A DNA stretch of 32,000 bases from Isorropodon fossajaponicum endosymbiont JTNG4. Its GTDB lineage: Bacteria; Pseudomonadota; Gammaproteobacteria; PS1; Pseudothioglobaceae. The notes below the pieces were generated by a model that worked only from the letters and a program-made list of their open reading frames with translations, did not search any database and was not told where the DNA came from. Of the stretch, positions 4,723 through 31,309 are shown piece by piece. The stretch covers positions 390,001-422,000 of the forward strand of contig NZ_AP013043.1 of NCBI RefSeq assembly GCF_016592615.1, written 5' to 3'. The translations under genes were made by a program, and so were the position numbers. The first letter of the stretch is position 1. Every line of letters starts with the position of its first letter.

Positions 4723-4728
4723 AGCCAA

Positions 4729-4751
4729 ACAAATAACATTTGTCTTTTTTT
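4729..4751 (+). terminator. weak candidate intrinsic terminator after murE
   Basis: ACAAAT-AAC-ATTTGT is a 6-bp AT-rich stem followed by C and a T7 run, immediately after the murE stop. The stem is weak. Confidence 0.3.
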
Positions 4752-4845
4752 ATTTAACTGTTATTCTAATTATGGCAAAACCTTTGAAAATATCCAGCGT
4801 CTACGCAAACGCTATTACCAAGCCTATCAAGGCAAGCAAGCCTTA

Positions 4846-5610
4846 TTGGATTTAATTTCAGAAACCGAGGTTGGAGAGCAAGTTTATAACTCAAACGCCA
4901 TCGAAAACTCCACACTAACTCTAGGTGACACCGAAAAAGTTTTATTACAAATTGATTTAGATAAATATATTTCTGAGCGAGAATTATTTGAGGCAAAAAA
5001 TCTTGCTAGAGTGGTGAACTATCTTAACAAAAAAGCCACACAATCAGAACTCACTTTGGAGGTTATTTTATTATTACATCAAATGTTGCTGGCTAACATT
5101 AATGATAGTTTTGCTGGTAAATGGCGAAATAAAGACGAATGGGTAAAAGTCGGTAACTATATTGCCATTGCTCCTGAGCAAATTATCGATAAATTACACA
5201 AAGTGTTGACGGATTATTTTGCGACAAATAACGAACATATCATTAAACGCATCGCTTTATTGCATTTACAATTTGAGCAAATTCATCCCTTTGTTGATGG
5301 TAATGGACGCATTGGCAGAGCGCTAAATAATTACTTACTGATACGTGATGGCTTTGTGCCGATTAACATTAAGTTTATTGATAGAGCGGATTATTACACT
5401 ACCTTTAATGAATTTAACGAGACTGGCAAAACCAAAATTATGGAAAGCATTATCGGTAAAGCACTCACTAATAGTTACCACAAGCGCCTGACATATTTAG
5501 AGGGCAAAGAGATTGTCTCTCTAGTAGATTATGGCAAAATATCACACTCTAACCTTATCAACAAAGCCAAACGCCAAACCACTGAAGCCTTTTCAGAAAA
5601 AGGTAAATAG
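4846..5610 (+). CDS. Fic family protein, class II architecture (N-terminal inhibitory helix plus HPFxDGNGRxxR core)
   Basis: The canonical Fic motif HPFVDGNGRIGR is present. The inhibitory-helix motif (S/T)xxxE(G/N) is present as SNAIEN upstream of the core. The listed ORF starts at a TTG. The same frame stays open back to the murE stop (4723..4845) and encodes plausible Fic N-terminal sequence (TFENIQRLRKRYYQAYQGKQALL). The only nearby ATG (4772) is one base out of frame. Confidence 0.8.
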   Translation: MDLISETEVGEQVYNSNAIENSTLTLGDTEKVLLQIDLDKYISERELFEAKNLARVVNYLNKKATQSELTLEVILLLHQMLLANINDSFAGKWRNKDEWVKVGNYIAIAPEQIIDKLHKVLTDYFATNNEHIIKRIALLHLQFEQIHPFVDGNGRIGRALNNYLLIRDGFVPINIKFIDRADYYTTFNEFNETGKTKIMESIIGKALTNSYHKRLTYLEGKEIVSLVDYGKISHSNLINKAKRQTTEAFSEKGK

Positions 5611-5677
5611 AAAACTGCTGACAAAAACAACCAATAAACCGCGCTTATCAGTTTGACAATATTATAGTAATATCCAT

Positions 5678-5705
5678 AAAAAGCCCCATTTTTCACAGGG
5701 CTTTT
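5678..5705. terminator. bidirectional stem-loop between the convergent Fic and OMP genes
   Basis: AAAAAGCCC - 11-nt loop - GGGCTTTTT. It has a GC core and is flanked by A and T runs on both sides. It overlaps the stop codon of the minus-strand OMP gene. Confidence 0.5.
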
Positions 5706-6175
5706 AATAAAAAGCATTAATTTTACCGTCTACACCAACACCATAAAACACATCAGTCCCATCCGTTTTTGCTGATACGCTAGTATTGTTATTTATAGCA
5801 GTAATATCCCAAGAATGAGCACCTAACTTAACAAAGGGTGAAAAATCTGATTGTGGATTAAAATGATACAAGCCAGCCACACCAATACTACTGCCAGACA
5901 TTGCTACTACTGTAGCAACATTATTTTCCGTTATATTTTCTTTAGCAAAATCAGCATATTGTAATTCAATAGCTATACTATCGCTTAAACGTTTTCCAAT
6001 TAACGCCCTGTAATTATTTTTTTTTATACTTTAAAGCGTAGTTTGTTCCGCTAATATTAACACTACTTTTTGATGTTGTTTCATTAAACCCAATGCCAAA
6101 ATATAAATCACTTTGTGCATATACTGACGAAGATAGTAAGCCTGCCAATACTAATATTTTTATCTTATTTTTCAT
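5704..6175 (-). pseudogene. small outer-membrane beta-barrel protein (OmpX/Ail/OmpW-size) interrupted by a +1 frameshift in an A9 tract
   Basis: A GGAG Shine-Dalgarno lies 5 nt upstream of ATG 6175. The signal peptide is MKNKIKILVLAGLLSSSVYA/QSD. Alternating beta-strand-like sequence ends in an aromatic C-terminus (...GKINAFY). Frame 1 stops at 6016..6014 directly after the coding-strand A9 run (6017..6025). The second frame continues to 5704. Removing one A fuses both parts into about 156 aa. Confidence 0.65.
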
Positions 6176-6235
6176 CTTTTCTCCTATTATTGTATTAATA
6201 AAAAACTACTATAGTAAATATTACTATAGAGATTT

Positions 6236-6474
6236 TTGTTGGATATAAACATTAGCAAAGCATACTTAACTATTGGAAAAAATGTTAAAAAACAACGCAT
6301 AAAAAAGGCATACCACAATTAGCACTGGCATTAGAAATGGGGTATGAATCTGTTAGTATCGTTTCTATGTCTGAAGTTGGTGCAAGAGATAAGCACTTTA
6401 ATATTGAACATTTGTTAAAAATTTCTAAAATTTTGCAAATAGACGTTTGTTGTTTCTTTGAAGACGTTTTATAA
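6236..6474 (+). pseudogene. XRE-family helix-turn-helix regulator, frameshifted
   Basis: The N-terminal piece (...LTIGKNVKKQRIKK) and the downstream piece (GIPQLALALEMGYESVSIVSMSEVGARDKHFNIEHLLKISKILQIDVCCFFEDVL*) together match the XRE/Cro HTH pattern. They lie in different frames and join at an A6 run (6301..6306). The first frame hits TAG at 6320..6322. Confidence 0.6.
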
Positions 6475-6499
6475 TGGAACAAACTAATCACAAACCCTC

Positions 6500-7753
6500 A
6501 TGCTACAAACTACCACAAACACCATTGCCCAAGTATTAAAAACAGATTGTGCTACCGATGTTGAATTTAAAGGTGTTTGTACCGACACTCGTAAACGCAT
6601 GGATGGTGCACTGTTTTTAGCCTTAGTTGGTGATAACTTTGATGCGCATGACTATATTGACCAAGCACAACAGATGGGCGCAGTGGCAATTATTGCTAGC
6701 AAATCTGTAGACAGTCAACTGCCAACATTGGTGGTGGATGACACACAAATTGCACTGAGTACAATTGCCAGTTGGCATCTTAGAAACATCAAACCTATTG
6801 TGGTTGCTATTACAGGTAGTAACGGTAAAACCACCACCAAAAACATGCTAGCAAATATCTTAAATTTGCAAGCGCCAACGCTAAAAACTCAAGGTAATTT
6901 AAATAACCATCTGGGCGTGCCAATGACCTTATTAACACTGGAAGAGCAACACCAATATGCAGTGATTGAAATGGGGGCTAACCATTTGGGAGAAATTGCA
7001 CATCTTTGTTCCTTAGTTAATCCTGATATTGCCCTTGTGACCAATACGCTTGATGCACATATTGGTGAGTTTGGCGGGTTTGATAATTTAGTCAAAGCCA
7101 AAAGTGAGATTTACTCAAATAACTCGCAAAACATTGTTAATACTCAAAGCACTTTTATGGGTGATGTTAGTTTTGGTAAAGGTGGTGATATTTTTGCTAG
7201 CAAACTTGTTAATAACAAATTTGATTTAAATATTCATCAGCAAAAAATATCAGTCACACTTAACCTGATTGGTGCGCATAACATTGAAAATGCCTTGGCA
7301 GCTAGCGCCTGTGCTTATGCACTAGGGATTGATATTAATCTAATCAAGCAAGGTTTGGAAGCGACGAAGGCAGAACATGGCAGATTAGAAATTATCAACA
7401 CCAAAAAATTTAGAATCATTGATGATACTTACAATGCCAATCCACATTCTACAACTGCCGCCCTTAAAGTGCTACAAAATTTTTCTGGAGAAAAAATTGT
7501 CGTACTCGGTGCTATGGGAGAATTAGGCAGTGATTCGGAAGCACTCCACCTTAAAATCGGACAGCTAGCCAAAAAATCTGTCGATACTCTTTATAGCTAT
7601 GGCAAGACAGCGAAGCACTACTGTGGTATTCACTTTGACAGCAAACAGCAATTGGCCAACCACCTGTTAGCCAACCATGCCAACGCTACTGTACTAATAA
7701 AAGGCTCTAGAATGGCAAAGTTGGATGAGTTGGTTGATTTACTAAAAAAATAA
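6500..7753 (+). CDS. murF: UDP-N-acetylmuramoyl-tripeptide--D-alanyl-D-alanine ligase
   Basis: 417 aa. It has the Mur ligase P-loop ITGSNGKTTTK and the DDTYNANP motif characteristic of MurF. Confidence 0.95.
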   Translation: MLQTTTNTIAQVLKTDCATDVEFKGVCTDTRKRMDGALFLALVGDNFDAHDYIDQAQQMGAVAIIASKSVDSQLPTLVVDDTQIALSTIASWHLRNIKPIVVAITGSNGKTTTKNMLANILNLQAPTLKTQGNLNNHLGVPMTLLTLEEQHQYAVIEMGANHLGEIAHLCSLVNPDIALVTNTLDAHIGEFGGFDNLVKAKSEIYSNNSQNIVNTQSTFMGDVSFGKGGDIFASKLVNNKFDLNIHQQKISVTLNLIGAHNIENALAASACAYALGIDINLIKQGLEATKAEHGRLEIINTKKFRIIDDTYNANPHSTTAALKVLQNFSGEKIVVLGAMGELGSDSEALHLKIGQLAKKSVDTLYSYGKTAKHYCGIHFDSKQQLANHLLANHANATVLIKGSRMAKLDELVDLLKK

Positions 7754-7765
7754 ACTCAATTGACC

Positions 7766-7794
7766 TTGACCTTTAATGCAAATATAGCGATAAT
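7766..7794 (+). promoter_or_regulatory. candidate sigma70 promoter for tRNA-Arg
   Basis: TTGACC (7766..7771), a 17-nt spacer, then GATAAT (7789..7794). The tRNA 5' end lies 12 nt downstream. Confidence 0.45.
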
Positions 7795-7806
7795 AACGCT
7801 CTTGAT

Positions 7807-7884
7807 GCGCTCGTGGCTCAATTTGGATAGAGTACTCGGCTACGAACCGAGCGGTTGCAGGTTCGACTCCCGCCGAGCGCACCA
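7807..7884 (+). tRNA. tRNA-Arg (anticodon ACG)
   Basis: Cloverleaf folded by hand. The acceptor stem is GCGCTCG/CGAGCGC, followed by discriminator A and an encoded CCA. The anticodon arm is CTCGG-CTACGAA-CCGAG and the T-loop is TTCGACT. There is one A.C mismatch in the T stem. It is near-identical to the core of E. coli tRNA-Arg(ACG). Confidence 0.9.
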
Positions 7885-7920
7885 TATATATTTTTCAACA
7901 CTTGTCATAACAACCAACCT

Positions 7921-8505
7921 ATGACCACAATTCCAAACATTCTAACCCTGTCAAGAATTTTTCTAATTCCAGTGTTTGTAAGTTTGTATTATTTTCAGCC
8001 CGCCTACTCTACAACACCTGTGTTTACTTGGATTAATTTCTTGCTTACAAGCACTTACGCACTCATTAGTGCAACGGATTATTTTGATGGCTACCTAGCA
8101 AGAAAGCTTAATATGACCTCACAACTTGGCGCTTTTTTAGACCCTGTTGCGGATAAACTCATGGTCTCCACTGCGCTCATCCTTTTAGTGGACTTCTACC
8201 CAACTGACACACATTGGTATATTAGCGTTTGTGCGCTTATTATTATTTCACGTGAAATTCTAGTCTCGGCACTTAGAGAATGGATGGGAACTATTGGACA
8301 AAGATCAAATGTCAGTGTTTCCTGGATGGGCAAAGTGAAAACTTTTGTACAAATATTTGCCATTTTATTTTTGTTGTACCAGCAACCTTTTTTTGGACTG
8401 CAAAGTTTTGAAATTGGTGTTGTTTTATTATTAGTGGCAACTTTTTTAACCTTATGGTCTGGGTTTATCTATCTAAAAGAAGGACGCAAAACTTTTAATA
8501 ATTAA
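7921..8505 (+). CDS. pgsA: CDP-diacylglycerol--glycerol-3-phosphate 3-phosphatidyltransferase
   Basis: It carries the CDP-alcohol phosphatidyltransferase motif DGYLARKLNMTSQLGAFLDPVADK. I place the start at ATG 7921 (MTTIPNILTLSRIF...) because the track start at 7855 lies inside tRNA-Arg. Confidence 0.9.
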   Translation: MTTIPNILTLSRIFLIPVFVSLYYFQPAYSTTPVFTWINFLLTSTYALISATDYFDGYLARKLNMTSQLGAFLDPVADKLMVSTALILLVDFYPTDTHWYISVCALIIISREILVSALREWMGTIGQRSNVSVSWMGKVKTFVQIFAILFLLYQQPFFGLQSFEIGVVLLLVATFLTLWSGFIYLKEGRKTFNN

Positions 8506-8518
8506 TGCTAAATCTAAC

Positions 8519-8546
8519 TTGACTATTATCTAAAAAACACTATAAT
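8519..8546 (+). promoter_or_regulatory. candidate sigma70 promoter for tRNA-Gly / tRNA-Cys
   Basis: TTGACT (8519..8524), a 16-nt spacer, then consensus TATAAT (8541..8546). The tRNA 5' end lies 11 nt downstream. Confidence 0.55.
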
Positions 8547-8557
8547 TCATCACCTAT

Positions 8558-8633
<76 letters not shown>

Positions 8634-8705
8634 AATTTAAAGGCTTTTTTCCAAAAAAAGGATGAGTACAGGTCTTTTTATTATCGCCTTTGCAAGTGTT
8701 AACAT

Positions 8706-8779
8706 GGCTGGGTAGCAAAGCGGTTATGCAGGGGCCTGCAAAGCCTTACAGACCGGTTCGACTCCGGTCCCAGCCTCCA
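8706..8779 (+). tRNA. tRNA-Cys (anticodon GCA)
   Basis: The acceptor stem is GGCTGGG/CCCAGCC. The anticodon loop is CTGCAAA and the T-arm is CCGGTTCGACTCCGG. CCA is encoded. Length is 74 nt. Confidence 0.9.
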
Positions 8780-8857
8780 ACAAACACCTCATTTGATTTT
8801 TTTATTCTAAATCAAGTATTACACAGTCCAATCCTGCTTAACCCAAAAAAGCATGTA

Positions 8858-10069
8858 CTACTTTAGCGCCTTAAGACGCAAGCGCAATGCATTGAGCTTG
8901 ATAAATCCAGCAGCATCTTTTTGATTGTATGCGCCTTCATCGTCCTCAAAAGTGGCAATTTTTTCGCTGAATAAACTGTCCTTAGATTGTCGACCTACAA
9001 CAGTGACATTGCCCTTGTAGAATTTAAGGCGAACAATGCCATTGACTGTTTCTTGAGTGTTGTCAATGGCAGCTTGTAGCATTTCACGCTCTGGCGCAAA
9101 CCAAAAACCGTTATAAACCATTTCGGCGTATTTGGGCATTAGTTCATCCTTAAGATGTGCTGCTGCACGATCAAGGGTGAGTGATTCCATGGCGCGATGC
9201 GCCTTTAGTATGACAGTACCTGCAGGTGTTTCATAACAACCACGAGATTTCATACCCACAAAACGATTTTCCACAATATCATCACGACCAATACCATGTG
9301 CACCTGCACGTTTGTTTAAATCTTCCATCACTGAAGCGGGGCTCATTATTTCGCCATTGATGGCTACAATATCGCCTTTTTTGAAAGTAATTTCAACATA
9401 TTCTGCCTTGTCAGGCGCATTTTCAGGTGAAACTGTCCAACGCCACATATCCTCTTCAGGCTCTGCCCAAGGGTCTTCTAAAATATCGCCTTCATAAGAA
9501 ATATGAAGTAAATTTGCATCCATTGAGTAGGGGGGTTTTTTTGATTGCTTTTTGTAATCAATCTCAATACCGTGTTTTTGTGCATAATCCATTAAACTTT
9601 CACGCGAGGACAAATCCCATTCACGCCACGGCACAATCACTTGAATATGTGCATCCAGTGCATAAGCATTCAACTCAAAGCGAACTTGATCATTGCCCTT
9701 GCCTGTTGCACCGTGGCTGATTGCATCTGCACCTACCTGATGAGCGATTTCTACTAAGCGCTTAGAGATAAGCGGACGAGCAATGGAGGTACCTAATAAA
9801 TATTCACCTTCATAAATAGCATTAGCACGAAACATTGGGAATACAAAATCACGTGCAAATTCTTCACGCAAATCTTCAATGTAAACCTCTTTGACACCTG
9901 CAGATTTTGCCTTAGCGCGTGCAGGTTCTACCCCCTCACCTTGACCAATATCAGCTGTGAAGGTAACCACTTCACACTGATAAGTATCTTGTAGCCATTT
10001 AACAATAATGCTTGTATCTAGTCCGCCCGAATAGGCGAGTACCACTTTATTTATGTTTGTTTTGTCCAT
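8858..10069 (-). CDS. argG: argininosuccinate synthase
   Basis: 403 aa. It has the N-terminal [11 protein letters not shown]-loop, and the remainder is typical type-I ArgG sequence. Confidence 0.95.
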
Positions 10070-10094: not shown

Positions 10095-10488
10095 TTACTC
10101 GTCTTTCTTTTTATATATGAATGTTTTGGTTAATAAAATTTCATTTTGTTGATTGAGCACTTCAACTTTCCACTCTCCTGTCCATGTGTGCCAAATATTT
10201 TTATTGACCACACACGCCAACGTTTTCCTTTAATGTTAAAACCAATCTCAGCTTTAACCTTGTCCTTATAACTCCAGCGATGTGTGATTTTATCGCCTGT
10301 TAAATTGCGAATATTAGTAAAAAAGTAAATTTTACCTAAAGTATCATCGGTCTCTGTAATTACCTCATGGGTACTCTATCCTTAATTGATCTGGCAAAAA
10401 CAGCATTTTATATATGCTCATGCGGCCAGCTTGCCAAAGTAGCATTAGCCAAAAACCCTAATAGTAATAATATATATTTTTTCATCAT
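10095..10488 (-). pseudogene. DUF2914-like exported protein with multiple lesions
   Basis: Hand translation gives the signal peptide MMKKYILLLLGFLANATLA. An in-frame TAA follows at 10410..10408. A frameshift lies near 10365..10372, before VITETDDTLGKIYFFTNIRNLTGDKITHRWSY...KGKRWRVWS. A second frameshift at a 5-nt homopolymer (10198..10202) precedes [27 protein letters not shown]. The G.RWR.WS.K...G.W.V.V pattern is what I recall for DUF2914. Confidence 0.55.
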
Positions 10489-10934
10489 TTCACCCGGTTA
10501 ATTATATGTAAATCAATCTCATCTTCATCTAACTCATTATCTAAAAAAGTGCGCCCACGTACAGAAATACCTGCTAAATGTACAGTTTCTACATCGCCAC
10601 TAATGAGTAGATACTAATCAAACAATGGCTTTTTCTCATGCAAAAGTCGATAGACATATGTACTTGGTAGCCGATTAAATTTATGACCCCAATCTGGGCT
10701 AATGGTTAAACAATCTGGCACCAGTTGTTGACGCATCTCATAATGTGGGCATTGGTAACTTTGCTCGTCTATATAACGACAAACCACATCAGTAAAATAA
10801 ATATCGCCCGTGTCTTCATCTTCCAGTTTGTGCAAACAACAACGCCCACAATTATCGCATAAGGACTCCCACTGTGAGTGTGTCATATCTTCTAATGCTG
10901 TATCTTCCCAAAAATTTGAAACATTGGTTGTCAT
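10485..10934 (-). pseudogene. ycgN: YcgN/UPF0260 cysteine-cluster protein with an in-frame amber codon
   Basis: The ORF 10614..10934 carries WESLCDNCGRCCLHK and ends at TAG 10616..10614. The same frame continues for 38 more codons (YLLISGDVETVHLAGISVRGRTFLDNELDEDEIDLHIINRVK*). These align with the C-terminus of E. coli YcgN as I remember it. The TAG sits where E. coli has Trp, so TGG to TAG is plausible. Confidence 0.7.
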
Positions 10935-10941
10935 AAAAAAT

Positions 10942-12939
10942 TTATAAATTAGCGATTAAATATAACAAAATACGTTTGCCTTGTTGGCTACCCTTTCGCG
11001 TTGTTATGCTTGCCCAATAATAAGCCTTATTGTAATCTGTCTGTACACCAACACCCTTCATATACATGATGGCCAAGGCGTTTTGTGATTGAGTAATGCT
11101 TTGGTTGGCAGACTGGCGCATGAGTATAAATGCCGCTCTATTATCTTTACGCACAACCTTGCCTTTGCCATAAAGCACACTTAAATTATATTGAGCAATA
11201 GGATTACCTTGTTCAACACTAACAAGTAATGCTTCCAAATTAGTACTTGAATTGGTATTGTAACTAAGCGACTTAGCAATCTCATTTTGATTGGGAATAA
11301 GACGGTTTATGTTGCCAAATAGTTGCTCGTTAAAATTAAAAATAGGATGTTGGGATGTTTTTGCCATAATTGGCTCGATAGTGATCACTGGCTTGATAAC
11401 GCTTTGAATGGTGCTTTTTTCTTGCTCATTCTGCACTGCTTGTTGCAATTTAGATGGTAACTTTTTCAACAATTTAACCGCTGATGCATTATTTTGATTA
11501 GCCGCTAATTCTAAATAATAAGTCGCCTCTTTAACCATGTCCTGATTAAGAAAAATTTTTCCTAATTGATATTGAGCTTTAGCATATCCTGCCTTTGCCG
11601 CTTTAAGTAAATAAGTTTTGGCTAACATCTCATCCTTAGCCACAGCGCTACCCTTGTTATAAATCAAATACAATTGATACTGCGACACTTGATGACCCTG
11701 TTCAGCCGCTTTTTGATACCAATAAGCAGCTTGTTTACTGTCTTTTTTAACACCTTGAGTCAATTGATAACGTAGTGCTAATGAATACTGCGCCAGCTTA
11801 TGCCCCGCTTGAGCGGCTTTTAATAGCCACTTTACTGCCACTTGATAATTTTTTTCAACACCTTCACCAAGTAAATATCTAAGTGCTAACGAGTATTGTG
11901 CACTTGTGAACCCTTGCTGGGCAGATTTTGTATATAGATCAAGAGCTTGATGGGTATCTTTTTCAACGCCATCGCCATTTAGATATAAAGTTGCTAAGTT
12001 GTATTGCGCTTGTGCGTGACCATTTTTCGCTGCTTTTTCATACCAAGCAACGGCACTGGATAAATTATGCTCAACTTTGGCACTTTTTCGATAAATTACA
12101 CCCACTAAAAATTGTGATTGCGCATCATTTTGATTAGCCGCCATTAATGCCCAATATAGAGCCTTAACATCATCTTGTTTGACCAAATAACCAATTCGAT
12201 ACAAGGCTGACAATCTAGCTTGTGCATCAACAAAACCCTGATCTGCAGATTTTTTATAATAATCTAATGCCTTACTAGAACCCCCTTCACGCTCATAAAA
12301 ATCAGCCAAGTAAAATTGTGCTTCAGGGTCAAATTGATTGGCCGCTGCTTCATACCACCGCTGTGCTAACGTTAAATCTCTATCAACACCAATACCTACT
12401 TCATATAACTTAGCAAGACTAAGTTGTGCTGCCCCATATCCCAATAATGCTGCTTTTTCATACCAATACAAGGCCTTAACATTATCAACGGATGTACCCT
12501 TACCAAGACGATACATCATCGCTAAATTATACTGCGCATTCACAAAATCTTGTGTGGCTGATTTTTCATACCAATATAATGCTTGTTCTAAATCTTTACC
12601 GACCCCTAAGCCATAATAATAACTATTAGCCGCGTTAAATTGCGCGCTTGCATAACCTTGTTCAGCCACCTGCAAGTACCAATAAAAAGCCAATTTATCG
12701 TCTACTATTACAGTAATACCATTATGATACATATTGGCTAAACTAAATTGCGATCTAGCATCGCCACGCTTGGCTGATTTTTTTAATTTAGTTAGTAACT
12801 GTTTAGCAGACAATGGTGCGTCTAATTGAGGTGCGTCTAATTGCTGTTGGACAGCTTGATTATCATCAATAGGTTGTAGAATTTGCAATGCCTGTATTGG
12901 CAAAGAGAATAAAAGAACAAGGTAGATAAATTTAATCAT
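10942..12939 (-). CDS. secreted Sel1-like (SLR/TPR-family) repeat protein
   Basis: 665 aa with the signal-like N-terminus MIKFIYLVLLFSLPIQA. About a dozen tandem repeats of roughly 36 aa follow the pattern A.YWY.KAA.QG...AQ..L..(M/L)Y..G.GV..D. A non-repeat Q/N/S-rich linker of about 90 aa follows, then 2-3 more Sel1-like repeats at the C-terminus. Confidence 0.9.
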   Translation of the reverse strand: MIKFIYLVLLFSLPIQALQILQPIDDNQAVQQQLDAPQLDAPLSAKQLLTKLKKSAKRGDARSQFSLANMYHNGITVIVDDKLAFYWYLQVAEQGYASAQFNAANSYYYGLGVGKDLEQALYWYEKSATQDFVNAQYNLAMMYRLGKGTSVDNVKALYWYEKAALLGYGAAQLSLAKLYEVGIGVDRDLTLAQRWYEAAANQFDPEAQFYLADFYEREGGSSKALDYYKKSADQGFVDAQARLSALYRIGYLVKQDDVKALYWALMAANQNDAQSQFLVGVIYRKSAKVEHNLSSAVAWYEKAAKNGHAQAQYNLATLYLNGDGVEKDTHQALDLYTKSAQQGFTSAQYSLALRYLLGEGVEKNYQVAVKWLLKAAQAGHKLAQYSLALRYQLTQGVKKDSKQAAYWYQKAAEQGHQVSQYQLYLIYNKGSAVAKDEMLAKTYLLKAAKAGYAKAQYQLGKIFLNQDMVKEATYYLELAANQNNASAVKLLKKLPSKLQQAVQNEQEKSTIQSVIKPVITIEPIMAKTSQHPIFNFNEQLFGNINRLIPNQNEIAKSLSYNTNSSTNLEALLVSVEQGNPIAQYNLSVLYGKGKVVRKDNRAAFILMRQSANQSITQSQNALAIMYMKGVGVQTDYNKAYYWASITTRKGSQQGKRILLYLIANL
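12815..12844. repeat. 15-bp tandem duplication inside the Sel1 gene (encodes QLDAP QLDAP)
   Basis: GGTGCGTCTAATTGA followed by GGTGCGTCTAATTGC, 29 of 30 positions consistent with a perfect duplication. It is in frame and lies just after the signal peptide. Confidence 0.8.
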
Positions 12940-13870: not shown

Positions 13871-13930
13871 GCTTTAATCATTAAATAAAAATTTCATTTT
13901 CTAGCGAACCATACAAGAAAAAATTGACCA

Positions 13931-14494
13931 CTACACACGCCCTGTATATTCATTAGTACGCGTATCTACTTTCACTTTATCACCAATACCAACAAAAAGA
14001 GGCACTTGCACCACAACCCCTGTGTTCATTGTCGCTGGCTTACCACCTGTGCCCGCAGTATCACCTTTTAAGCCTGGATCAGTATCGAGCACTTCAAGAA
14101 TAACATGATTAGGCGGGGTCACTGAAATAGGATTATCATTCCAAAGCGTCACCGTACACATGTCCTGTTCAACCAAATAACCTTTAGCATCACTCATAGC
14201 AGTACCATCAATGGCATATTGCTCAAATGAGTCTAGGTCCATAAAATTCCATGCACTGCCATCATTATAAAGATATTGTAAATCCAATTCCATTACATCA
14301 GCACCCTCTAAAGACTCACCAGACTTAAAAGTTTTAATCAGTGTTTTGCCAGTAATTAAGTCTTTAAATTTAACTCGATTAAACGCTTGACCCTTACCAG
14401 GTTTAACAATTTCGTTATTCACAATCGAGCAAGGATTACCATCTAGCATAAGTTTTAAGCCGTTTTTGAATCGGTTGGTAGCGTAATTTGCCAT
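13931..14494 (-). CDS. efp: translation elongation factor P
   Basis: 187 aa of typical EF-P sequence, with KPGKGQAF and the C-terminal [14 protein letters not shown]. Confidence 0.95.
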
Positions 14495-16575: not shown

Positions 16576-16760
16576 AAAACCCCATTGTTATCTTAGGTAT
16601 TGGTGAGTTGGTGAGTGTTTTCTCTCGTGGTTTTTTAAAGAATAATTACCCTGTTTACCTCATCACCCGACAAACTAATATTGATGAGTTGGCAAATACC
16701 ATCAGTCCAGAATTTATCTTAGTTTGCACAGCAGAAGCTGATTTACAAACCCCACTGTGA
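16572..16760 (+). pseudogene. probable 5' remnant of a Rossmann-fold gene (62 codons only)
   Basis: The start overlaps the sucD stop (ATGA coupling). The sequence [33 protein letters not shown]...FILVCTAEADL looks like the beta-alpha-beta N-terminus of an NAD(P)-binding protein of about 250-300 aa. It terminates where the truncated queA arrives from the other strand. Confidence 0.3.
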
Positions 16761-17501
16761 TTTCAGCCTGGTTTGAAAAAAAGATACGCCCACCATTTGC
16801 CTTGGTTTGGTTAATTTTGTTAATGGTTGCTTGGCTAATCTCAAACGTCTCGCTGTGCATAACATGGTCTTTAATGTTGTCAGTTTTGACAGGGACAAAC
16901 GTACCTGCACCAACATGCAGTGTAACAAATGAGTGATTAATGCCTTGTTTTTTAACTCTGTTAACAATTTATCATCAAAATGTAGCCCTGCGGTTGGCGC
17001 ATCTTGGGATGCGTACACAGTTTGGTAGCGGCTTAAGTCTTGAGCATTATCTGCTCTTTCAATATAAGGGGGTAATAGGGTATGGCCAATATTACCAAGC
17101 AAATCAAGTAAAGAATTGGTTTTAAATATTAGCGTATAAAAGCTGTTGTTCTTTTGCTGAACTGTGACGTGAACGCCATTTTCTAAAATAATGTAGCTGC
17201 CGACTTTAGGTGCCCTGCTGACCCTAATCATTGCTAGTGCTTGATTTTCATCTAAAAGGCGTTCAATCATAATTTCAACTTTACCGCCTGTTGCTTTTGC
17301 ACCAAACCAGCGCGCTGGAATAACTTTGGTATTATTCATTATCAGTAAATCACCTGATTGAAGAAAATCGCCTATTTGATTAAATTGTGCATCTATAATG
17401 CTTGATTGCTTGACTAAAAGTCGTGAATCTGTTCTATTTTTTGGTGGATTTTGGGCGATAAGTGAGGCGGGTAAATCAAAATCAAAATCTTTTAATTGCA
17501 T
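16743..17501 (-). pseudogene. queA: S-adenosylmethionine:tRNA ribosyltransferase-isomerase, frameshifted and 3'-truncated
   Basis: The N-terminus MQLKDFDFDLPASLIAQNPPKNRTDSRLL... is typical QueA up to ...PTAGLHFDDKLLTELKNK. After a 6-nt homopolymer (16948..16953) the homology moves to another frame (GINHSFVTLHVGAGTFVPVKTDNIKDHVMHSETFEISQATINKINQTKANGGRI). All similarity stops near 16790, and the expected IAVGTTS... and the last ~110 aa are absent. Confidence 0.8.
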
Positions 17502-22684: not shown

Positions 22685-23538
22685 TTATCAAGATAAACAA
22701 GGCTTGCCAACAATACAATACTAAAGAATTATGAGCATTACTCAAACTTCCTCGCAGTAGTTATTACTATCAAGTCAAAGATAAGCGAGTAAACAACAAC
22801 ACCAATGCTATGATTAAATTAATCAAACAAACTGCTATTGAAGTTGGATACACCTATGGCAAACGCAGAATGCGGGTAGTTTTGAATAACCAAGGTTATA
22901 ACATTGGTATTTACCAAACCGCAACGCTAATGAAAAAAGCCAATGTAGTTGCCATACGCCCAAGAAAGCGTCATTATTACCCTAATACTAGATTGATGTT
23001 TAAAAAGGCAAAAAACCTATTAAATCGTGTGTTTGAGCAGCAATCAATTAATACGCATTGGGTTGGTGATATTACCTATATCAAAACCTATCAAGGTGGG
23101 AGTTATTTAGCCAGTGTGTTGGATTTAGGCTCAAGACAAGTTGTTGGTTGGGCATTGTCAAAACAGCCTAATGCTCAGTTGGCAAAGGATGCGCTTAGTA
23201 ATGCTGTGTCTAGACACCAGCCCAATACAAATAAACACATGTTCCACTCTGATCAAGGGACTCAATACTCTTCTAAAGTTTTTATTGATTATTGCAACAA
23301 GAACAACATTACTCAAAGCATGAGCAGGCGAGGTAATTGTTGGGATAATGCGGTCATGGAGCGTTTCTTTAGAAGTCTGAAGACTGAGAGATTAAATTAT
23401 CAAAGTTTTGCAAATCATAGTGAAGTCGTGCAAAATGTAGAGGGTTATATCTACTTGTATAATTACAAAAGGATTCATTCAGCGATTGGGTATTTAACAC
23501 CTGCTCAAAAGATGGCTGAATTGAAAAAAGCGGCTTGA
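22681..23538 (+). pseudogene. IS3-family orfB (DDE transposase, rve domain) with a premature in-frame TGA
   Basis: ATG 22681 overlaps the orfA stop (ATGA). The reading MIIKINKACQQYNTKEL-TGA(22732..22734)-ALLKLPRSSYYYQ... places the TGA where IS3 OrfB proteins usually have Cys (..LC..L.VSRS.YY). The rest of the frame (track ORF 22810..23538) is intact. Confidence 0.75.
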
Positions 23539-23540
23539 AA

Positions 23541-23567
23541 TGTGTCCAAGTAGGTTAGAGCATTGCA
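23541..23567. repeat. IS3-family right inverted repeat
   Basis: Partner of 22267..22293. It starts 3 nt after the orfB stop. Confidence 0.75.
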
Positions 23568-23856
23568 GTTTGAATACATTAGCCAAGCATTAAGAGACTG
23601 GGTACAAGCCTTAGGTATTGAGTTAATGTACATCCAACCAGGTAAGCCAACTCAAAATGCCTACATTGAGAGATTTAACCGTACAGTAAGACAAGAGTGT
23701 TTAGATCTGCATTTGTTTGATTCTGTTGAGCAAGCACAAGATGCAACCACACAGTGGTTATGGGTTTATAATAACGAACGACCGCACTTTGCCCTAGGTG
23801 GCGTGATAAGATGACTAGCCTCTACTTTAGAGTTGTATGGAAAATTGGGGTATTAC
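23568..23856 (+). mobile_element. 3' fragment of a second IS3-family element (C-terminal rve domain only); right boundary tentative
   Basis: It begins immediately after the IS3 right repeat. The sequence FEYISQALRDWVQALGIELMYIQPGKPTQNAYIERFNRTVRQECLDLHLFDSVEQAQDATTQWLWVYNNERPHFALGG has its stop at 23812..23814. This is the conserved tail of IS3-family (IS407/IS2-like) OrfB. A possible ...CA terminus lies at 23856. Confidence 0.65.
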
Positions 23857-24105: not shown

Positions 24106-24935
24106 AAAAATTTAATAAAAATGATTTTATAGAAGAGTTATTCAACTCTAAAATGAATGATAAAACATTTGATAAATGGATGGATAACCCAGAAAACTTT
24201 AATGACAAAGGGGAAAATAATACTAGAGAAAGAGGGCATGGGAAATATTGAGACAAAATAAGAAATTTATTTAATCAAGTTCATAATGGAGCAAGATTAT
24301 TTCAGGCAGAAGAGGTAAGGAGAATAGATGATGAATTTTTGAGAGACATTACACATGATAGTTATTTTAGTAGACTGTCAAAGGCATCAATGAGTAATGA
24401 GATTTTTAAAAGTATAGAAGAAAGTAATAATAAAGATGCAGTTTTTGATTTATCGAAAGCAAATAATAATTTATTTATTCTTAATAATATCAGAAATGAT
24501 ATAAATAAAATTCACGAAAATAAGCAAACAAAAAACAAAATATATTTGCATGGGTTAAGTGGTTTGGTGAATTAGTAACAATCATTAGTAGTGAAAATCA
24601 AAATACACTACTTTTGAAAAATAACGATGTTGAATATCAAGTTAAACATACTGATTTTTTAATTGACGACATAATTATTGATAGTAAATACAAGACAAAA
24701 TACAAAAATACACATGTTAACGATGATATTGCACGGCTTGCTAGATATGGCAGAAATAAAGCCATTCGTGAAGGTGTTAAACTTAGATGAAAAAATTGCA
24801 AAATGTTTAATTATCTATCCTAATAGAATAGGTGAAGAGCTTTTAGATAGAGATTTATGGCAACAAGCAGAGGAAATAAAGGCATTTAAAGCGTTTAAAA
24901 AAATTGCCATCAAACTCCCATCTTTTGATGCATAA
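24102..24935 (+). pseudogene. PD-(D/E)xK nuclease-like (McrC / restriction-endonuclease-like) gene remnant
   Basis: Very AT-rich. Frame 0 from ATG 24102 has an in-frame TGA at 24249..24251 and stops at 24573..24575. After an A6 run (24530..24535), another frame reads QNIFAWVKWFGELVTIISSENQNTLLLKNNDVEYQVKHTDFLIDDIIIDSKYKTKYKNTHVNDDIARLARYGRNKAIREGVKL. That stretch gives a D...D-x-K nuclease signature. A third frame gives DEKIAKCLIIYPNRIGEELLDRD...FDA*. The family call is tentative. Confidence 0.4.
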
Positions 24936-25884
24936 ACTCTCAGTAGCGCCAATGATGGATTGGACGGATAGGCATTGCCGATATTTTTATCGGCTGATGT
25001 CAAACAATGTTCAACTTTGGACTGAAATGGTAACAGCTAAAGCGATACTTTATGGGGATAAAAACCGTCTGTTGGGTTTTAATGCGTGTGAACATCCGTT
25101 GGTGTTGCAATTGGGTGGTAGTGAGCCAAAAGAGATGCTACAAGCAGCAAAAATAGCGCAAGATTGGGGTTATGATGAGGTTAATATTAATGTGGGCTGT
25201 CCTTCTGATAGAGTGCAATCAGGCAGTTTTGGGGCGTGTTTGATGCAAACGCCGCAGGTGGTGGCGCAATGTGTTGATGCAATGAGGCAAGTGGTAGATG
25301 TGCCAATTACGGTTAAGTCACGTATTGGTGTGGATGATATGGATAGCTACGGTGAATTGGTTAATTTTGTTGCAACAGTTGAAAGTTCGGGTTGTGATAA
25401 TTTTGTGATTCATGCCAGAAAGGCTTGGCTAAAAGGTTTGAGTCCTAAGGAAAATCGTAGCGTGCCAAAGCTTAATTACGGCTGGGTGTATCAGATTAAG
25501 CGAGACTTCCCCCATCTTGTCATTGGTATAAATGGTGGCATTATGGACATGGAAAGTTCATTGCAGCATTTAGAATATGTGGATAGCGTTATGTTGGGCA
25601 GGGCAGTGTATCATCAGCCTTATTTGTTAAGTGAGGTGGATGGTTTGATTTACCAGCAAAAATCATCAATATTGAGTCGTGAACAAGTATTATTAGCATT
25701 CATTGAATATATGAAAGTTCAACATGCTAATTCTGTACCAATTAGATCCATGACACGGAATATTTTGGGTTTGTATCATGGGCAAAAAAATGCTAAAAAA
25801 TTTAAACGTTTGTTAAGTGGTAAAACAGTTGGGTTTGAGCACCTGTATGAATGGTTAGAATATATGGATAAAAACAATGGCTAG
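24928..25884 (+). CDS. dusA: tRNA-dihydrouridine(20/20a) synthase
   Basis: I place the start at ATG 24928 (MHKLSVAPMMDWTDRHCRYFYR, the conserved DusA N-terminus). The TIM-barrel Dus motifs NINVGCP and VKSRIG are present. The track start TTG 24904 adds 8 unrelated residues. Confidence 0.9.
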   Translation: MHKLSVAPMMDWTDRHCRYFYRLMSNNVQLWTEMVTAKAILYGDKNRLLGFNACEHPLVLQLGGSEPKEMLQAAKIAQDWGYDEVNINVGCPSDRVQSGSFGACLMQTPQVVAQCVDAMRQVVDVPITVKSRIGVDDMDSYGELVNFVATVESSGCDNFVIHARKAWLKGLSPKENRSVPKLNYGWVYQIKRDFPHLVIGINGGIMDMESSLQHLEYVDSVMLGRAVYHQPYLLSEVDGLIYQQKSSILSREQVLLAFIEYMKVQHANSVPIRSMTRNILGLYHGQKNAKKFKRLLSGKTVGFEHLYEWLEYMDKNNG

Positions 25885-27094
25885 TGATAATTTCTTTGCA
25901 AGTATTGATATAGGCACAAGCAAAATTGCGGTGTTAATTGCTGATGAGGAAGATGGCAAAATAGAGGTATTTGGTCATGGCATTGGTTTGTCAGACGGGG
26001 TGAAAAATGCGCTGATTGTTGATATTGATAAAGTGGCAAAAGCAATATCAAAGGTGGTAGAAACTGCTTATCTTAGTTGTAATACTAGAATCCATAATGT
26101 ATCCACCAATATTTGCGATTTGCATCTAAGTACGATTAATCAAGATAGGCAAATACCGGTTAGCGGTAAAAAAATCACCAAAGAGCATGTTATTGCGGCA
26201 ATTAATTCGGCATCAGCCACACCTACGCCTGCTAATAAGCAAACGCTAAGTGCGAGTATTAATAGCTTTACCATTGACCAAGATACAACAGCAGTTGACC
26301 AACCAATTGGACTTGAGGCAACTCTTTTAGGTGCTCAAGTACATGTGAGCATTGTTTCAAACCAAGCCATGAGTAGCATCCATCAAGCGGTTGAAAAAAG
26401 TGGACTAGGGCTTAGTGAAGTTGTTTTGGATTCTATAGCCAGTAGCAGGGCTTGCATTACTCAGGATGAGAAAGACAATGGTGTTTGCTTGCTTGATATG
26501 GGGGCGGGTGTGAGTAATATTTCTGTGTTTATGGGTGGCGGTATTACTTATAGTCATGTTTTTAAAATGGGTGGTAATCAAATTACCCAAAATATTGCCA
26601 ATGCCTTTAGCGCCTCATTTAAAGAAGCGGAAAGACTCAAAATTGAATATGGTTATGCCCAATTAAAGATAACACCAGTGGATAAATTAATTCAGTTTAA
26701 ACAGCTGGATTCTATTGAAAATCGCTATTTATCATTACACAATTTGGTTGAAGTTATAGAAAATTCTTATTTAGATATTTGCCGTATGGTTAAGCAAAAT
26801 CTAAAAACTAAAAAGTTAGATAGATCGCTTAAATCAGGATTTGTGTTAACAGGTGGTGTGTCCTTAATAGAGGGTTGTGAAGGGTTGTTTGTTAATACTT
26901 TTAGAATAAGAACCAAGCTGGCTAAAGTTAATGTGAATAAAATCACAGGTAAAGATATGATTGTTTCTAACCCTATTTATACATGCGCATTAGGTTTATT
27001 GATGCATGCTGATAATAACGCTTATTTAGAAACGGTGCAAGCGCACCAACAAACTAACTTTGTGAGTAAAATAAAATCATTATTGGAACTATAA
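25877..27094 (+). CDS. ftsA: cell division protein FtsA (actin-like ATPase)
   Basis: 405 aa. It has phosphate-1 DIGTSK, a phosphate-2-like [14 protein letters not shown] and the adenosine motif [10 protein letters not shown]. The C-terminus has an amphipathic helix, [11 protein letters not shown]. The ATG overlaps the dusA stop by 8 nt. Confidence 0.9.
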
Positions 27095-27099
27095 ATATT

Positions 27100-28011
27100 A
27101 TGATCAAACAAAGAACCATTAAAAAAGAAGTGAAAGCTAGAGGTGTTGGTATTCATAGTGGCAGTGTTGTAAATATGACTTTAATTCCTGCCAAAGAAGA
27201 TCATGGCGTGGTGTTTAGGCGCATGGATGTGGGTGGTAAATTGGTGCGTGCGCACAGTGCGTTTGTTAACGAAGTAGTACTTTCTACGGGGCTTGAAAAT
27301 CAAGGCGTTAAAGTGTCAACGGTTGAACATTTGATGAGCACATTTTCAGCCCTTGGGATTGATAATGTTTTAGTAGAACTTGATTCGTTTGAAGTGCCAA
27401 TCATGGATGGCTCATCTGCTCCTTTTATTTTTCTAGTTCAATCTGCTGGCATTAAAGAGCAAGATGCCCATAAAAAGTTTTTTGTCATTAAAAATACTAT
27501 ACGGGTAGAAAATGGTGATTCATGGGCACAAGTGTCTAAATATGAGGGTTTTAAGGTGTCACTTGAGATTGATTTTGATCATAAAAAAGTTAAAGAAAGT
27601 GGGCAGAAGCTGAGTATTAATTTTTCCAAACAGTGTTACTTAAAAGAAATCTCACGTGCTAGAACTTTTGGTTATATGAAAGATGTAGAAATGATGCAAA
27701 GGCAAAATTTGGCACTAGGTGCCAGTATGGACAATGCAATTGCTTTGAGTGATGATGACGTTTTAAATGAAGATGGCATGCGTTATCAAAATGAATTTGT
27801 TAAGCATAAAATTTTGGATATTGTTGGTGACTTGTATTTATTAGGTGGCAATCTAATTGGGCACTATGAAGGGTACAAAACAGGACACCTGCTTAATAAT
27901 CAATTATTATCAGCCATTTTAGCAAAACCAGATACATGGTCTATTGAGACATTCGAAAAAGAAGCCACACCTATTCAATTTTATTCTGAAGATTGGAAAA
28001 ATTTCTTGTAA
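27100..28011 (+). CDS. lpxC: UDP-3-O-acyl-N-acetylglucosamine deacetylase
   Basis: 303 aa beginning [21 protein letters not shown]. It carries the TVEHLMSA-type motif (TVEHLMSTF) and [19 protein letters not shown]. Confidence 0.95.
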
Positions 28012-28053: not shown

Positions 28054-29787
28054 ATGAAGTTAAATGGTGCTCAAATATTAATTAACAGTCTTAAAAGTGA
28101 AGGGGTTGAGCACATCTTTGGCTATCCTGGCGGTGCCATTTTACACATTTATGATGCATTAAATATGTGCAATGAGATTAAACATATTCTTGTTCGCCAT
28201 GAGCAGGGCGCTGTACATGCAGCAGACGGCTATGCACGCACCAGTGGCAAGTGTGGCGTAGTGCTTGTTACCTCAGGACCGGGGCTTACTAATGCAGTAA
28301 CAGGTATTGCTACAGCCTACATGGACTCTATTCCTATGGTGGTCGTTTCAGGTCAAGTTTCTTCTGTAGTTATCGGCAATGATGCTTTTCAAGAGGTTGA
28401 TGCGGTTGGTATTACTCGTTCGTGTGTTAAGCATAATTTCTTAGTAACAGACATTAATGATTTGGCAAATGTTGTTAAAAAAGCATTTTATATCGCGACT
28501 ACAGGTCGCCCTGGTCCTGTTCTTATTGATATTACCAAAGACACAACGATTGCTGAGATTGAGTTTGACGGCTATCCTAAATCAATTGATATGCGTTCGT
28601 ATCAGCCTGAGATAAAGATTGAAGCAGATCAAATCACCAAGGCGGTTGCGTTAATTGTTCAAGCAAAAAAACCTATTATTTATTCAGGTGGTGGCAGTGT
28701 GATTGGCAATGCTGATAAAACACTGCGTATTTTTACTCGTCATACAGGTTTTCCAATTACCCAAACTTTAATGGGATTGGGTGCTTATCCTGCAAGTGAT
28801 AAACAATCATTAGGCATGTTAGGCATGCACGGCACTTATGAGGCCAACATGGCAATGCACGATTCAGATTGTATTATTGCTGTAGGTGCGCGTTTTGATG
28901 ACCGTATTACTGGTAACTTAGACAAATTTTGCCCTTATGCAAAAATTATTCACATTGATATTGACCCATCTTCTGTAGGCAAAACTGTGGGTGTTGATGT
29001 GTCGATTATCGGGCAAGTTAATGATGCTTTGGGCGCATTAACACGAGCACTGAAAAACAAGCAATTGGCTGATATTACTCAATGGTGGGCGCAAATTGAG
29101 ATGTGGCGTGGTGTTGATTCATTGGCGTATCAAACCAAAGTAGGTGTGATTAAGCCACAAAGCGTAATTGAAGCTTTATATGAAGTAACCAAAGGCGAGG
29201 CGATTGTTACCAGTGATGTTGGACAACACCAAATGTGGGTAGCGCAATATTATCCATTTGATAAGCCACGCCGTTGGATTAACTCTGGCGGCCTAGGCAC
29301 AATGGGCTTTGGACTACCTGCGGCGATGGGTGCAAAATTAGCAATACCTGAGATGGATGTCGCTTGCGTAACAGGCGAAGGTAGTATTCAAATGATGTTA
29401 CAAGAACTTTCTACTATGTTGCAATACAACACTCCGGTAAAGATTATAAATTTAAATAATGGTTATTTGGGCATGGTGCGCCAATGGCAAGAGTTTTTTT
29501 ATGACAAACGTTATTCAATGTCATACATGGATGCGTTGCCTGATTTTGTAAAACTAGCAGAAAGTTATGGGCACATAGGTATTAAGGTCGAAAAAGAGCT
29601 GGATTTAAAACCAGCATTGATTGAAGCATTCAAGCAAAAAGACAGAACGGTATTTTTAGATATTTTGACCGACCCTACAGAAAATGTATTTCCAATGATT
29701 CCATCAGGTGCAGGACACCACGAAATGCTGTTAGCAGGTCGTGATAAGATGGCGTCAACTAATGACAAAGGCTTGAATTTAGTATGA
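28054..29787 (+). CDS. ilvI: acetolactate synthase (acetohydroxyacid synthase) large subunit
   Basis: 577 aa with the ThDP-enzyme pattern (GYPGGA, RHEQGA.HAADGYAR, GGLGTMGFGLPAAMGA). It is followed by the small subunit with an overlapping stop/start. Confidence 0.95.
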   Translation: MKLNGAQILINSLKSEGVEHIFGYPGGAILHIYDALNMCNEIKHILVRHEQGAVHAADGYARTSGKCGVVLVTSGPGLTNAVTGIATAYMDSIPMVVVSGQVSSVVIGNDAFQEVDAVGITRSCVKHNFLVTDINDLANVVKKAFYIATTGRPGPVLIDITKDTTIAEIEFDGYPKSIDMRSYQPEIKIEADQITKAVALIVQAKKPIIYSGGGSVIGNADKTLRIFTRHTGFPITQTLMGLGAYPASDKQSLGMLGMHGTYEANMAMHDSDCIIAVGARFDDRITGNLDKFCPYAKIIHIDIDPSSVGKTVGVDVSIIGQVNDALGALTRALKNKQLADITQWWAQIEMWRGVDSLAYQTKVGVIKPQSVIEALYEVTKGEAIVTSDVGQHQMWVAQYYPFDKPRRWINSGGLGTMGFGLPAAMGAKLAIPEMDVACVTGEGSIQMMLQELSTMLQYNTPVKIINLNNGYLGMVRQWQEFFYDKRYSMSYMDALPDFVKLAESYGHIGIKVEKELDLKPALIEAFKQKDRTVFLDILTDPTENVFPMIPSGAGHHEMLLAGRDKMASTNDKGLNLV

Positions 29788-30266
29788 GACACATTATTTC
29801 AGTATTGTTAGAAAATGAAGCGGGCGCTCTTTCTAGAGTGGCAGGGTTGTTTTCTGCTCGCGGATTTAACATTGAGTCACTCACAGTTGCAGCAACTAAT
29901 GATTCAACTCTATCACGCATGACCATTGTCAGCATTGGTGATGATAGTATTATTGAACAAACTGTTAAGCAACTTAACAAGTTGATTGATGTGGTCAAAG
30001 TAACAGATTTGACCGCAATTGAGCACATTGAGCGTGAATTATTACTGGTTAAAGTGGATGTTAATCAACAAACACAAGCTGATATTGACAAACAAATTGA
30101 TATTTTTTCGTGCAAAATAGTTGATGTATCAGAAGATACTTATACAATTGAGTTGGCAGGAAAAAGTCAAAAAATTAATGACTTTTTGGCAAGTTTAGAT
30201 GTGTCAAAAATTTTAGAGGTTTCTAGAACAGGCGTGACTGGCGTTTGCATGAAAAGAACAAGTTAA
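29784..30266 (+). CDS. ilvH: acetolactate synthase small (regulatory, ACT-domain) subunit
   Basis: 160 aa beginning MRHIISVLLENEAGALSRVAGLFSARGFNIESLTVA, the typical IlvH/IlvN N-terminus. Confidence 0.9.
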   Translation: MRHIISVLLENEAGALSRVAGLFSARGFNIESLTVAATNDSTLSRMTIVSIGDDSIIEQTVKQLNKLIDVVKVTDLTAIEHIERELLLVKVDVNQQTQADIDKQIDIFSCKIVDVSEDTYTIELAGKSQKINDFLASLDVSKILEVSRTGVTGVCMKRTS

Positions 30267-30295
30267 TAAAGACGCATTAAGCATTAAAAAAATAG

Positions 30296-31309
<1,014 letters not shown>

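Follow-up and report, generated by a model that had tools for sequence, protein, structure and literature searches.

The cell division gene ftsA of the Isorropodon fossajaponicum endosymbiont JTNG4 sits in a compact dusA-ftsA-lpxC-ilvIHC block in which neither ftsQ nor ftsZ occupies its canonical place. The window analysed here is a stretch of 32,000 nucleotides of this genome (contig NZ_AP013043.1, positions 390,001 to 422,000, forward strand), and all coordinates without further label are positions in it. Our reading, to which we give a probability of roughly 80%, is that the block reflects a state inherited throughout the SUP05/Thioglobaceae family, in which an ancestor lost ftsZ and a functional FtsA was retained. 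The FtsZ-less state of SUP05 bacteria and vesicomyid symbionts is itself already known from the literature of 2007-2019. What remains noteworthy is an orphan FtsA that purifying selection maintains across an FtsZ-less family, is expressed in the free-living isolate Ca. Thioglobus autotrophicus EF1, has an intact predicted structure, has lost an Arg of the canonical FtsZ contact, and is decaying only in the most reduced intracellular symbionts.

An earlier note, made from the letters of this stretch, had placed ftsA between dusA and lpxC, and the open reading frame (ORF) listing, direct reading and profile scores confirmed the identities and junction coordinates of the three genes to the base. 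The dusA stop codon (TAG, 25882-25884) falls inside the first codons of ftsA, and the resulting 8-nt overlap is consistent with translational coupling. For dusA the identity and the stop were right, but the start called at TTG 24904 is less likely than the ATG at 24928, which is the probable start because homology with the relatives begins only at 24928-24933. As that note had also observed, ftsQ and ftsZ are missing from their canonical positions: dusA stands directly upstream of ftsA in the place of ftsQ, and a 5-nt spacer is all that lies between ftsA and lpxC, where ftsZ would be expected. lpxC does follow the division gene, as in a canonical distal division and cell wall (dcw) cluster. 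The sole outgroup context checked, that of the non-SUP05 FtsA hit P0093, reads murG-murC-ddl-ftsQ-ftsA-ftsZ(PF00091)-lpxC-secA; E. coli has the same dcw order, with 1312 nt between ftsA and lpxC. Downstream of lpxC, ilvI-ilvH-ilvC were found in every SUP05 locus examined, at the place of secM/secA in E. coli. The dissolution of the cluster goes further: the whole of it, and not ftsQ and ftsZ alone, is scattered family-wide. In both the window and Thioglobus sp. L012, pgsA and a divergent argG come after murE-murF (hupE / murE-murF-pgsA / argG in L012), and these flanks contain no ftsL or ftsI upstream and no mraY downstream.

The FtsA encoded in the window matches BBB23713.1 (I. fossajaponicum endosymbiont JTNG4) with 100% identity; it is 99.3% identical to that of Ruthia sp. 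Asou_11_S2 and 89-92% identical to FtsA of four other Ruthia/Ruthturnera genomes, whose loci are syntenic with the window. These identities assign the window to the Ruthia clade of SUP05/Thioglobaceae, as DNA of a thioautotrophic symbiont of a vesicomyid clam. The loci compared with it were those of four Ruthia/Ruthturnera clam symbionts (L001-L004, of which L002 is Ruthia sp. Cpac_8, CP072533, and L004 is Ruthia sp. Plio_17), Ca. Thioglobus perditus (L005), Thioglobus sp. (L006/L007), the Bathymodiolus septemdierum symbiont (L008, AP013042) and the Catillopecten gill (scallop) symbiont (L017, CP138327); L006 and L012 are metagenome assemblies of Ca. Thioglobus sp., and L010 is a related metagenome-assembled genome (MAG). 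The order dusA-ftsA-lpxC-ilvIHC was seen in L001-L004, L005, L006/L007 and L008, that is, in symbiotic and Thioglobus sp. loci alike, which answers the synteny comparison that the earlier note had asked for. L017 keeps ftsA-lpxC-ilvIHC and has three genes inserted between dusA and ftsA. Across the family, ftsA directly adjoins lpxC in all nine other intact SUP05/Thioglobaceae loci examined, clam, mussel and scallop symbionts included, with a spacer of 1-16 nt across eight genomes. Junctions were read in seven other intact loci, and dusA overlaps ftsA in six of them (L001-L003, L005, L006 and L008), the exception being L017. The ftsA/lpxC junctions recur in the closed chromosomes CP072533, CP125320, AP013042, CP138327 and AP009247. 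Since the adjacency extends throughout SUP05/Thioglobaceae, the event dates to the family ancestor and is neither a recent excision nor a misassembly, so that the clean, lineage-specific excision suggested at first is not sustained.

The window protein scores well above the cutoffs of two FtsA profiles (TIGR01174, 276.7 bits vs 175.85; PF14450, 83.4 vs 31.8) and falls short of the gammaproteobacterial equivalog model PRK09472 (194.8 bits vs a cutoff of 409), a shortfall that signals unusual divergence for an FtsA. Its AlphaFold2 model, built with 66 homologues (predicted local distance difference test score, pLDDT, 90.9; predicted template modelling score, pTM, 0.87), has the actin fold in which subdomain 1C (SHS2) replaces 1B. 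Foldseek aligned the model with E. coli, Vibrio and Xenorhabdus FtsA at template modelling (TM) scores of 0.86-0.93 and a root-mean-square deviation of about 2 Å, against about 0.6 for PilM and about 0.55 for MreB. Because the model superposes on FtsA structures far better than on PilM or MreB, it points firmly to a genuine FtsA. With canonical gammaproteobacterial FtsA (E. coli 7Q6D; Vibrio maritimus 7Q6F/7Q6I) the protein shares the four-subdomain actin fold with its 1C insert, the phosphate-1 and adenosine motifs, a predicted C-terminal amphipathic tail and the slot at the lpxC end of the cluster. It differs in being merely 27-29% identical, in having no ftsZ downstream and no ftsQ upstream, in the changes R300 to S, T215 to V and G151 to A and the loss of P299 and N170, in the lack of conservation of E303 within SUP05, and in its score below the PRK09472 cutoff.

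We compared 88 SUP05 FtsAs with 30 canonical FtsAs (within-group identity 0.47 and 0.42, respectively). D11, G13, D207, G209, G326 and G373 are invariant in the SUP05 proteins and G327 is kept in at least 90% of them; the DxG of phosphate-1, the DxG of phosphate-2 (DxGxGT) and the adenosine GG are retained, and Val replaces the Thr of phosphate-2 (E. coli T215) in 85% of the SUP05 sequences. The pattern of the C-terminal tail, (F/L)xxK(I/M)Kxx(L/F)xx(F/L), is also kept. AlphaFold2 places a helix at residues 394-404 of the window FtsA tail with low pLDDT, and its hydrophobic moment is weakly above that of shuffled sequences (0.48 vs a shuffle mean of 0.29, p about 0.1); we argue for a candidate membrane tail from the conserved pattern rather than from the moment. 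Conservation within SUP05 is about equal to that within canonical FtsAs for each of the four subdomains, the least conserved relative to the canonical set being 1C (0.41 vs 0.45).

The most striking change among the replaced canonical invariants lies in the 'IEPRxxE' helix of subdomain 2B, and the conserved FtsZ-peptide contacts of this helix, R300 and E303 in E. coli, are not preserved in SUP05. Arg occupies the R300 position in 29 of 30 canonical FtsAs, and S, A, G, P or T occupies it in 88 of 88 SUP05 FtsAs. At the E303 position E or D is found in all 30 canonical proteins and in 49 of the 88 from SUP05, the window residue being D300. A 2026 study (PMC13423804) locates E303 within the binding region for the FtsZ C-terminal peptide and predicts a salt bridge between E303 and FtsZ R379 that mirrors the Thermotoga complex. 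A global relaxation of 2B after the loss of FtsZ was considered and rejected, since 2B conservation is 0.53 in SUP05 and 0.41 in canonical FtsAs. With 2B as conserved as in the canonical proteins, or more so, the change is therefore residue-specific. The residue pattern fits an FtsA that may have stopped docking FtsZ while keeping a constrained 2B surface. Of the FtsZ membrane tether that was thought to be kept, the candidate membrane tail does persist, but the conserved Arg for the FtsZ peptide does not.

Evolutionary rates bear on whether this FtsA still works. Ratios of nonsynonymous to synonymous substitution (dN/dS; Nei-Gojobori, among clam symbionts) were 0.12-0.18 for ftsA, 0.13-0.19 for dusA, 0.07-0.14 for ilvI and 0.025-0.07 for lpxC, indicating that ftsA is under purifying selection comparable to that on dusA and ilvI and weaker than that on lpxC. 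No gene of the block evolves faster than ftsA, whose product has 38-54% identity between SUP05 genera as against 84-89% for LpxC, and ftsA is broken in some lineages. A 43-nt deletion in ftsA of L004 has removed the conserved KEAERLK…GYAQ segment and shifted the frame, and dusA of the same locus is broken too. The annotations of V. okutanii (AP009247) and of CP072535 leave the interval from bacA to lpxC without a gene; there, tblastn and blastn detected eroded remnants of ftsA and dusA upstream of an intact lpxC, which agrees with Kuwahara 2007 as summarised in PMC1974822 (Galperin 2007 column). The V. okutanii locus AP009247 and the window thus have in common the synteny bacA … lpxC-ilvIHC and the lack of ftsZ, but ftsA and dusA are eroded and uncalled in the former and intact, and subject to purifying selection, in the latter. 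lpxC remains intact at 94-95% identity in V. okutanii and L004 although ftsA is broken, and its expression therefore needs no intact ftsA ORF. Some strictly intracellular lineages can thus dispense with FtsA, which is maintained in the window lineage and the other SUP05 lineages examined.

The best-surviving alternative is that ftsA is a non-functional relic whose ORF persists only for transcription of lpxC or translational coupling to it. The 5-nt spacer is indeed too short to hold a promoter, which would have to lie within the ftsA coding sequence, no plus-strand terminator lies between the genes, and both the rapid evolution of ftsA and its loss in some symbionts would suit a relic. The dN/dS values, however, show selection on the protein sequence beyond a mere open frame; fold, nucleotide motifs and tail have been kept over family-deep divergence, the protein has been detected in EF1, and the intact lpxC of V. 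okutanii and L004 has outlived ftsA. We regard a relic as improbable.

We searched the window and eight related SUP05 loci of about 21 kb by tblastn with sixteen E. coli dcw proteins and obtained matches to MurE, MurF, FtsA and LpxC only. FtsZ, FtsQ, FtsW, FtsI, FtsL, MraY, MurD/G/C and DdlB had no match in this set, the best E-values being 1.2 for FtsZ and 0.27 for FtsQ. Published work extends this picture. R. magnifica and V. okutanii are both listed among bacteria without ftsZ in a table of PMC4164004 and in the introduction of PMC6952346, the latter listing, as presented there, resting on Bernander & Ettema 2010; Newton 2007, as cited in both papers, is an earlier source on FtsZ-less clam symbionts, and Kuwahara 2007, in the summary given by PMC1974822, describes V. 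okutanii as lacking ftsZ. The remark in the earlier note that such a clam symbiont had been reported was thus correct. Its suggestion of host-driven division did not survive. Shah et al. 2019 mBio (PMC6509183) reported that the free-living isolate EF1 encodes no FtsZ, and because a free-living member also lacks it, the loss of ftsZ is older than symbiosis and implies no division by the host. The same paper describes SUP05 genomes without FtsZ and proposes that these bacteria divide without it in an uncharacterised way, with MreB and the S-layer taking part. Its main text does not mention FtsA; its EF1 proteome table contains a 405-aa FtsA (6 spectra), FtsK and MreB.

Could ftsZ, with or without ftsQ, have moved, so that a normal Z-ring is encoded elsewhere in the 1.45-Mb genome? 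Insertion sequence (IS) elements occur in the genome, rearrangements lie right beside the locus, and 32 kb were inspected; in addition, the summary of V. okutanii in PMC1974822 does not name ftsQ among the missing genes, and ftsQ may well sit elsewhere. Against this stand the closed genomes of R. magnifica, V. okutanii and EF1, from which ftsZ is reported to be absent, an ftsA/lpxC junction that is the same family-wide, and the disappearance of the FtsZ-contact Arg from every SUP05 FtsA compared. Relocation of ftsZ is in our view very unlikely.

Slightly less credible still is that the gene is a PilM- or MreB-like paralogue that became a neighbour of lpxC by chance. It would account for the low PRK09472 score, for an identity of 27-28% to E. 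coli FtsA and for weak PilM_2 and MreB_Mbl Pfam hits. The protein nevertheless passes TIGR01174, contains the FtsA-specific SHS2/1C insert and reaches TM scores of 0.87-0.93 to FtsA against 0.55-0.65 to PilM and MreB, and its gene lies immediately before lpxC, in the place of the ancestral ftsA. An assembly or annotation artefact, in which a collapsed or chimeric junction would have removed ftsZ, is a formal possibility for which we found no supporting point, and the misassembly that had been feared has a negligible probability, given that the same junctions recur in other species whose assemblies are independent and differ in host, laboratory and sequencing method.

We therefore return to ancestral loss of ftsZ with a retained FtsA. 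In the family ancestor the dcw cluster fell apart, ftsZ was lost between ftsA and lpxC, and dusA took the place of ftsQ together with everything upstream of it. This left the compact dusA-ftsA-lpxC-ilvIHC block, probably co-transcribed, and the window displays its ordinary inherited state; the 8-nt overlap and the 5-nt spacer suggest co-transcription and translational coupling of dusA, ftsA and lpxC. FtsA could then serve as an actin-like scaffold, anchored in the membrane and binding nucleotide, through which envelope synthesis is organised or activated in an FtsZ-independent division, probably alongside MreB and FtsK, its 1C domain and remodelled 2B surface being available to partners other than FtsZ. 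In the most reduced intracellular lineages this function becomes expendable, and there ftsA decays. A more specific version holds that SUP05 FtsA is a retooled, FtsZ-independent division organiser that lost its Z-ring docking residue with ftsZ and whose still-conserved 2B groove and 1C subdomain recruit other partners, such as the N-terminal peptide of a penicillin-binding protein, FtsK or MreB/RodZ. This we put forward tentatively, as a suggestion that is less likely than not. If true, the family, one member of which is a free-living proteobacterium that can be cultured, would be a natural 'FtsA-without-FtsZ' divisome model.

Two described systems invite comparison. The FtsZ-less division of EF1 and SUP05 (PMC6509183) concerns the same family and the same lack of ftsZ, and L006 shows the same dusA-ftsA-lpxC block; that account credits division to MreB and the S-layer. 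How the genes are ordered, that ftsA is under selection and that the contact residue has been lost are results of the present analysis. Chlamydial division directed by MreB/RodZ (Ouellette 2012, as reviewed in PMC10591338) likewise involves FtsZ-less Gram-negatives with peptidoglycan precursor genes, MreB and FtsK. An actin-family protein is proposed as organiser in both, but SUP05 keeps FtsA besides MreB and includes free-living members. Chlamydiae are not known to have an FtsA.

Several points weigh against an ancestrally FtsZ-less family with a functional FtsA, or at least against parts of it. A promoter and terminator scan of 23.8-28.3 kb returned 17 promoter-like sites where 19.6 were expected by chance, and no plus-strand terminator; because promoter-like sites are no commoner than chance, the structure of the dusA-ftsA-lpxC operon is read from gene spacing alone. 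R300 is a probable FtsZ contact, a role supported by its position one helical turn from the documented E303. In the Thermotoga FtsA:FtsZ-peptide structure of Szwedziak and colleagues from 2012, R300 is reported to pair with a conserved Asp of the FtsZ peptide. The same residue has also been linked to FtsA self-interaction. The replacement of T215 by Val could mean that ATPase activity is altered or lost. The detection of FtsA in EF1 amounts to six spectra, and that ftsZ is missing from the entire JTNG4 genome is something we infer from relatives and the literature, the sequence searched here being 32 kb.

The literature searched contained no discussion of a conserved orphan ftsA, of a retooled 2B helix or of lineage-specific ftsA decay. 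We regard the orphan FtsA as modestly interesting, as a lead to follow and not as a new kind of finding: it offers a testable handle on how SUP05 bacteria divide, and SUP05 a natural experiment on the functions of FtsA that do not depend on FtsZ. The features of the locus are collected in Table 1.

Table 1. Features of the ftsA locus and its surroundings in the 32,000-nt window
Feature	Position	Strand	Basis or remark
Two IS3-family transposase fragments; rearrangement boundary upstream of dusA	22810..23814	+	NF033516 258.9 bits, positions 137-367 of 369; separate 83-aa rve_3 ORF next
Frameshifted, truncated 3' remnant of a 398-aa gene (which precedes dusA in L001)	24605..24932	+	tblastn; blastn synteny limits
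dusA, tRNA-dihydrouridine(20/20a) synthase	24904..25884	+	NF008774 483 bits vs cutoff 269
dusA/ftsA overlap, 8 nt (ATGGCTAG)	25877..25884	+	read directly
ftsA, 405 aa, divergent but intact; orphan, no ftsZ partner gene nearby	25877..27094	+	ATG 25877, stop TAA 27092-27094
FtsA-specific 1C (SHS2) subdomain, codons 83-157	26123..26347	+	PF02491 SHS2_FTSA, E = 1.1e-10, 42.1 bits vs 25.4
Long 2B/2A helix, codons 287-311; site of FtsZ C-terminal-peptide contacts in canonical FtsA	26735..26809	+	
S297 codon of window FtsA, at the E. coli R300 position	26765-26767	+	
Predicted C-terminal amphipathic helix, codons 394-405; candidate membrane-targeting sequence	27056..27091	+	
ftsA-lpxC spacer, 5 nt (atatt)	27095..27099	+	fills the place of ftsZ and flanking intergenic regions in canonical clusters
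lpxC, UDP-3-O-acyl-GlcNAc deacetylase	27100..28011	+	TIGR00325 341 bits vs cutoff 187; ATG 27100
ilvI-ilvH-ilvC	28054..31309	+	directly downstream of lpxC; ilvI = 28054-29787

The DNA around dusA is variable across SUP05. L008 carries a type III restriction-modification system there (4062-8944 of that locus), L006 has RelE and DUF2806 genes (7450-9053), and L017 has McrBC upstream of dusA and RelE plus a 490-aa ORF between dusA and ftsA (461-5871); the counterpart in the window is the pair of IS3 fragments. Integrative elements are known to target dusA. The gene itself is frameshifted in L002 (9038-9999 of that locus), as is ilvH (13906-14407), beside an intact ftsA. dusA is thus broken in L002, L004 and Vesicomyosocius, and has therefore decayed independently in several clam-symbiont lineages.

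Downstream, IlvI of the clam symbionts falls into two classes, one comprising the window, L002 and L004 and the other L001 and L003, with 78-82% identity between classes and dS >1. For LpxC, IlvH and IlvC on either side, identity is 91-99%. Window IlvI is nearer to that of the B. septemdierum symbiont (87%) than to that of L001 (82%), and recombination or replacement of ilvI is possible.

Between 16,750 and 24,605 the window has no synteny with its relatives on either side. Synteny with L010, L011 and L012 breaks off at about 16,750-16,780, within a gene of 276 aa, and synteny with L001-L004 begins in the truncated 398-aa gene at 24,605, whose remnant forms the edge of the rearranged block. 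The block contains a truncated queA, rnfGDCBA without rnfE, and the two IS3 transposase fragments, and it looks like an IS-associated rearrangement that accidentally placed murE-murF within 18 kb of ftsA-lpxC. The queA ORF (16743-17501, minus strand, 252 aa), probably a truncated pseudogene, matches only positions 1-201 of the 346-position QueA model and shares some bases with the end of rnfG.

Further upstream, a 1.8-kb insertion (4723-6499) separates murE from murF, whose counterparts in Thioglobus sp. L012 have an 8-nt overlap. The insertion holds a Fic-domain gene (4846-5610) and two frameshifted genes, one for an outer-membrane protein beta-barrel (5716-6175, minus strand) and one for a helix-turn-helix protein (6239-6471), of all of which the MAG L010 has intact versions. 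At 10165-10934 (minus strand), a YcgN-like CxxCxxCC gene encodes 106 aa, compared with 149 aa in relatives, and the neighbouring DUF2914 gene is frameshifted; the two add to the signs of ongoing gene decay in this genome. The Sel1/TPR-repeat protein (10942-12939, minus strand) has 665 aa as against 508-525 aa in L010, L011 and L012. Its segment 12,046-12,557 has no nucleotide match in L010, which suggests an expansion of the repeats.

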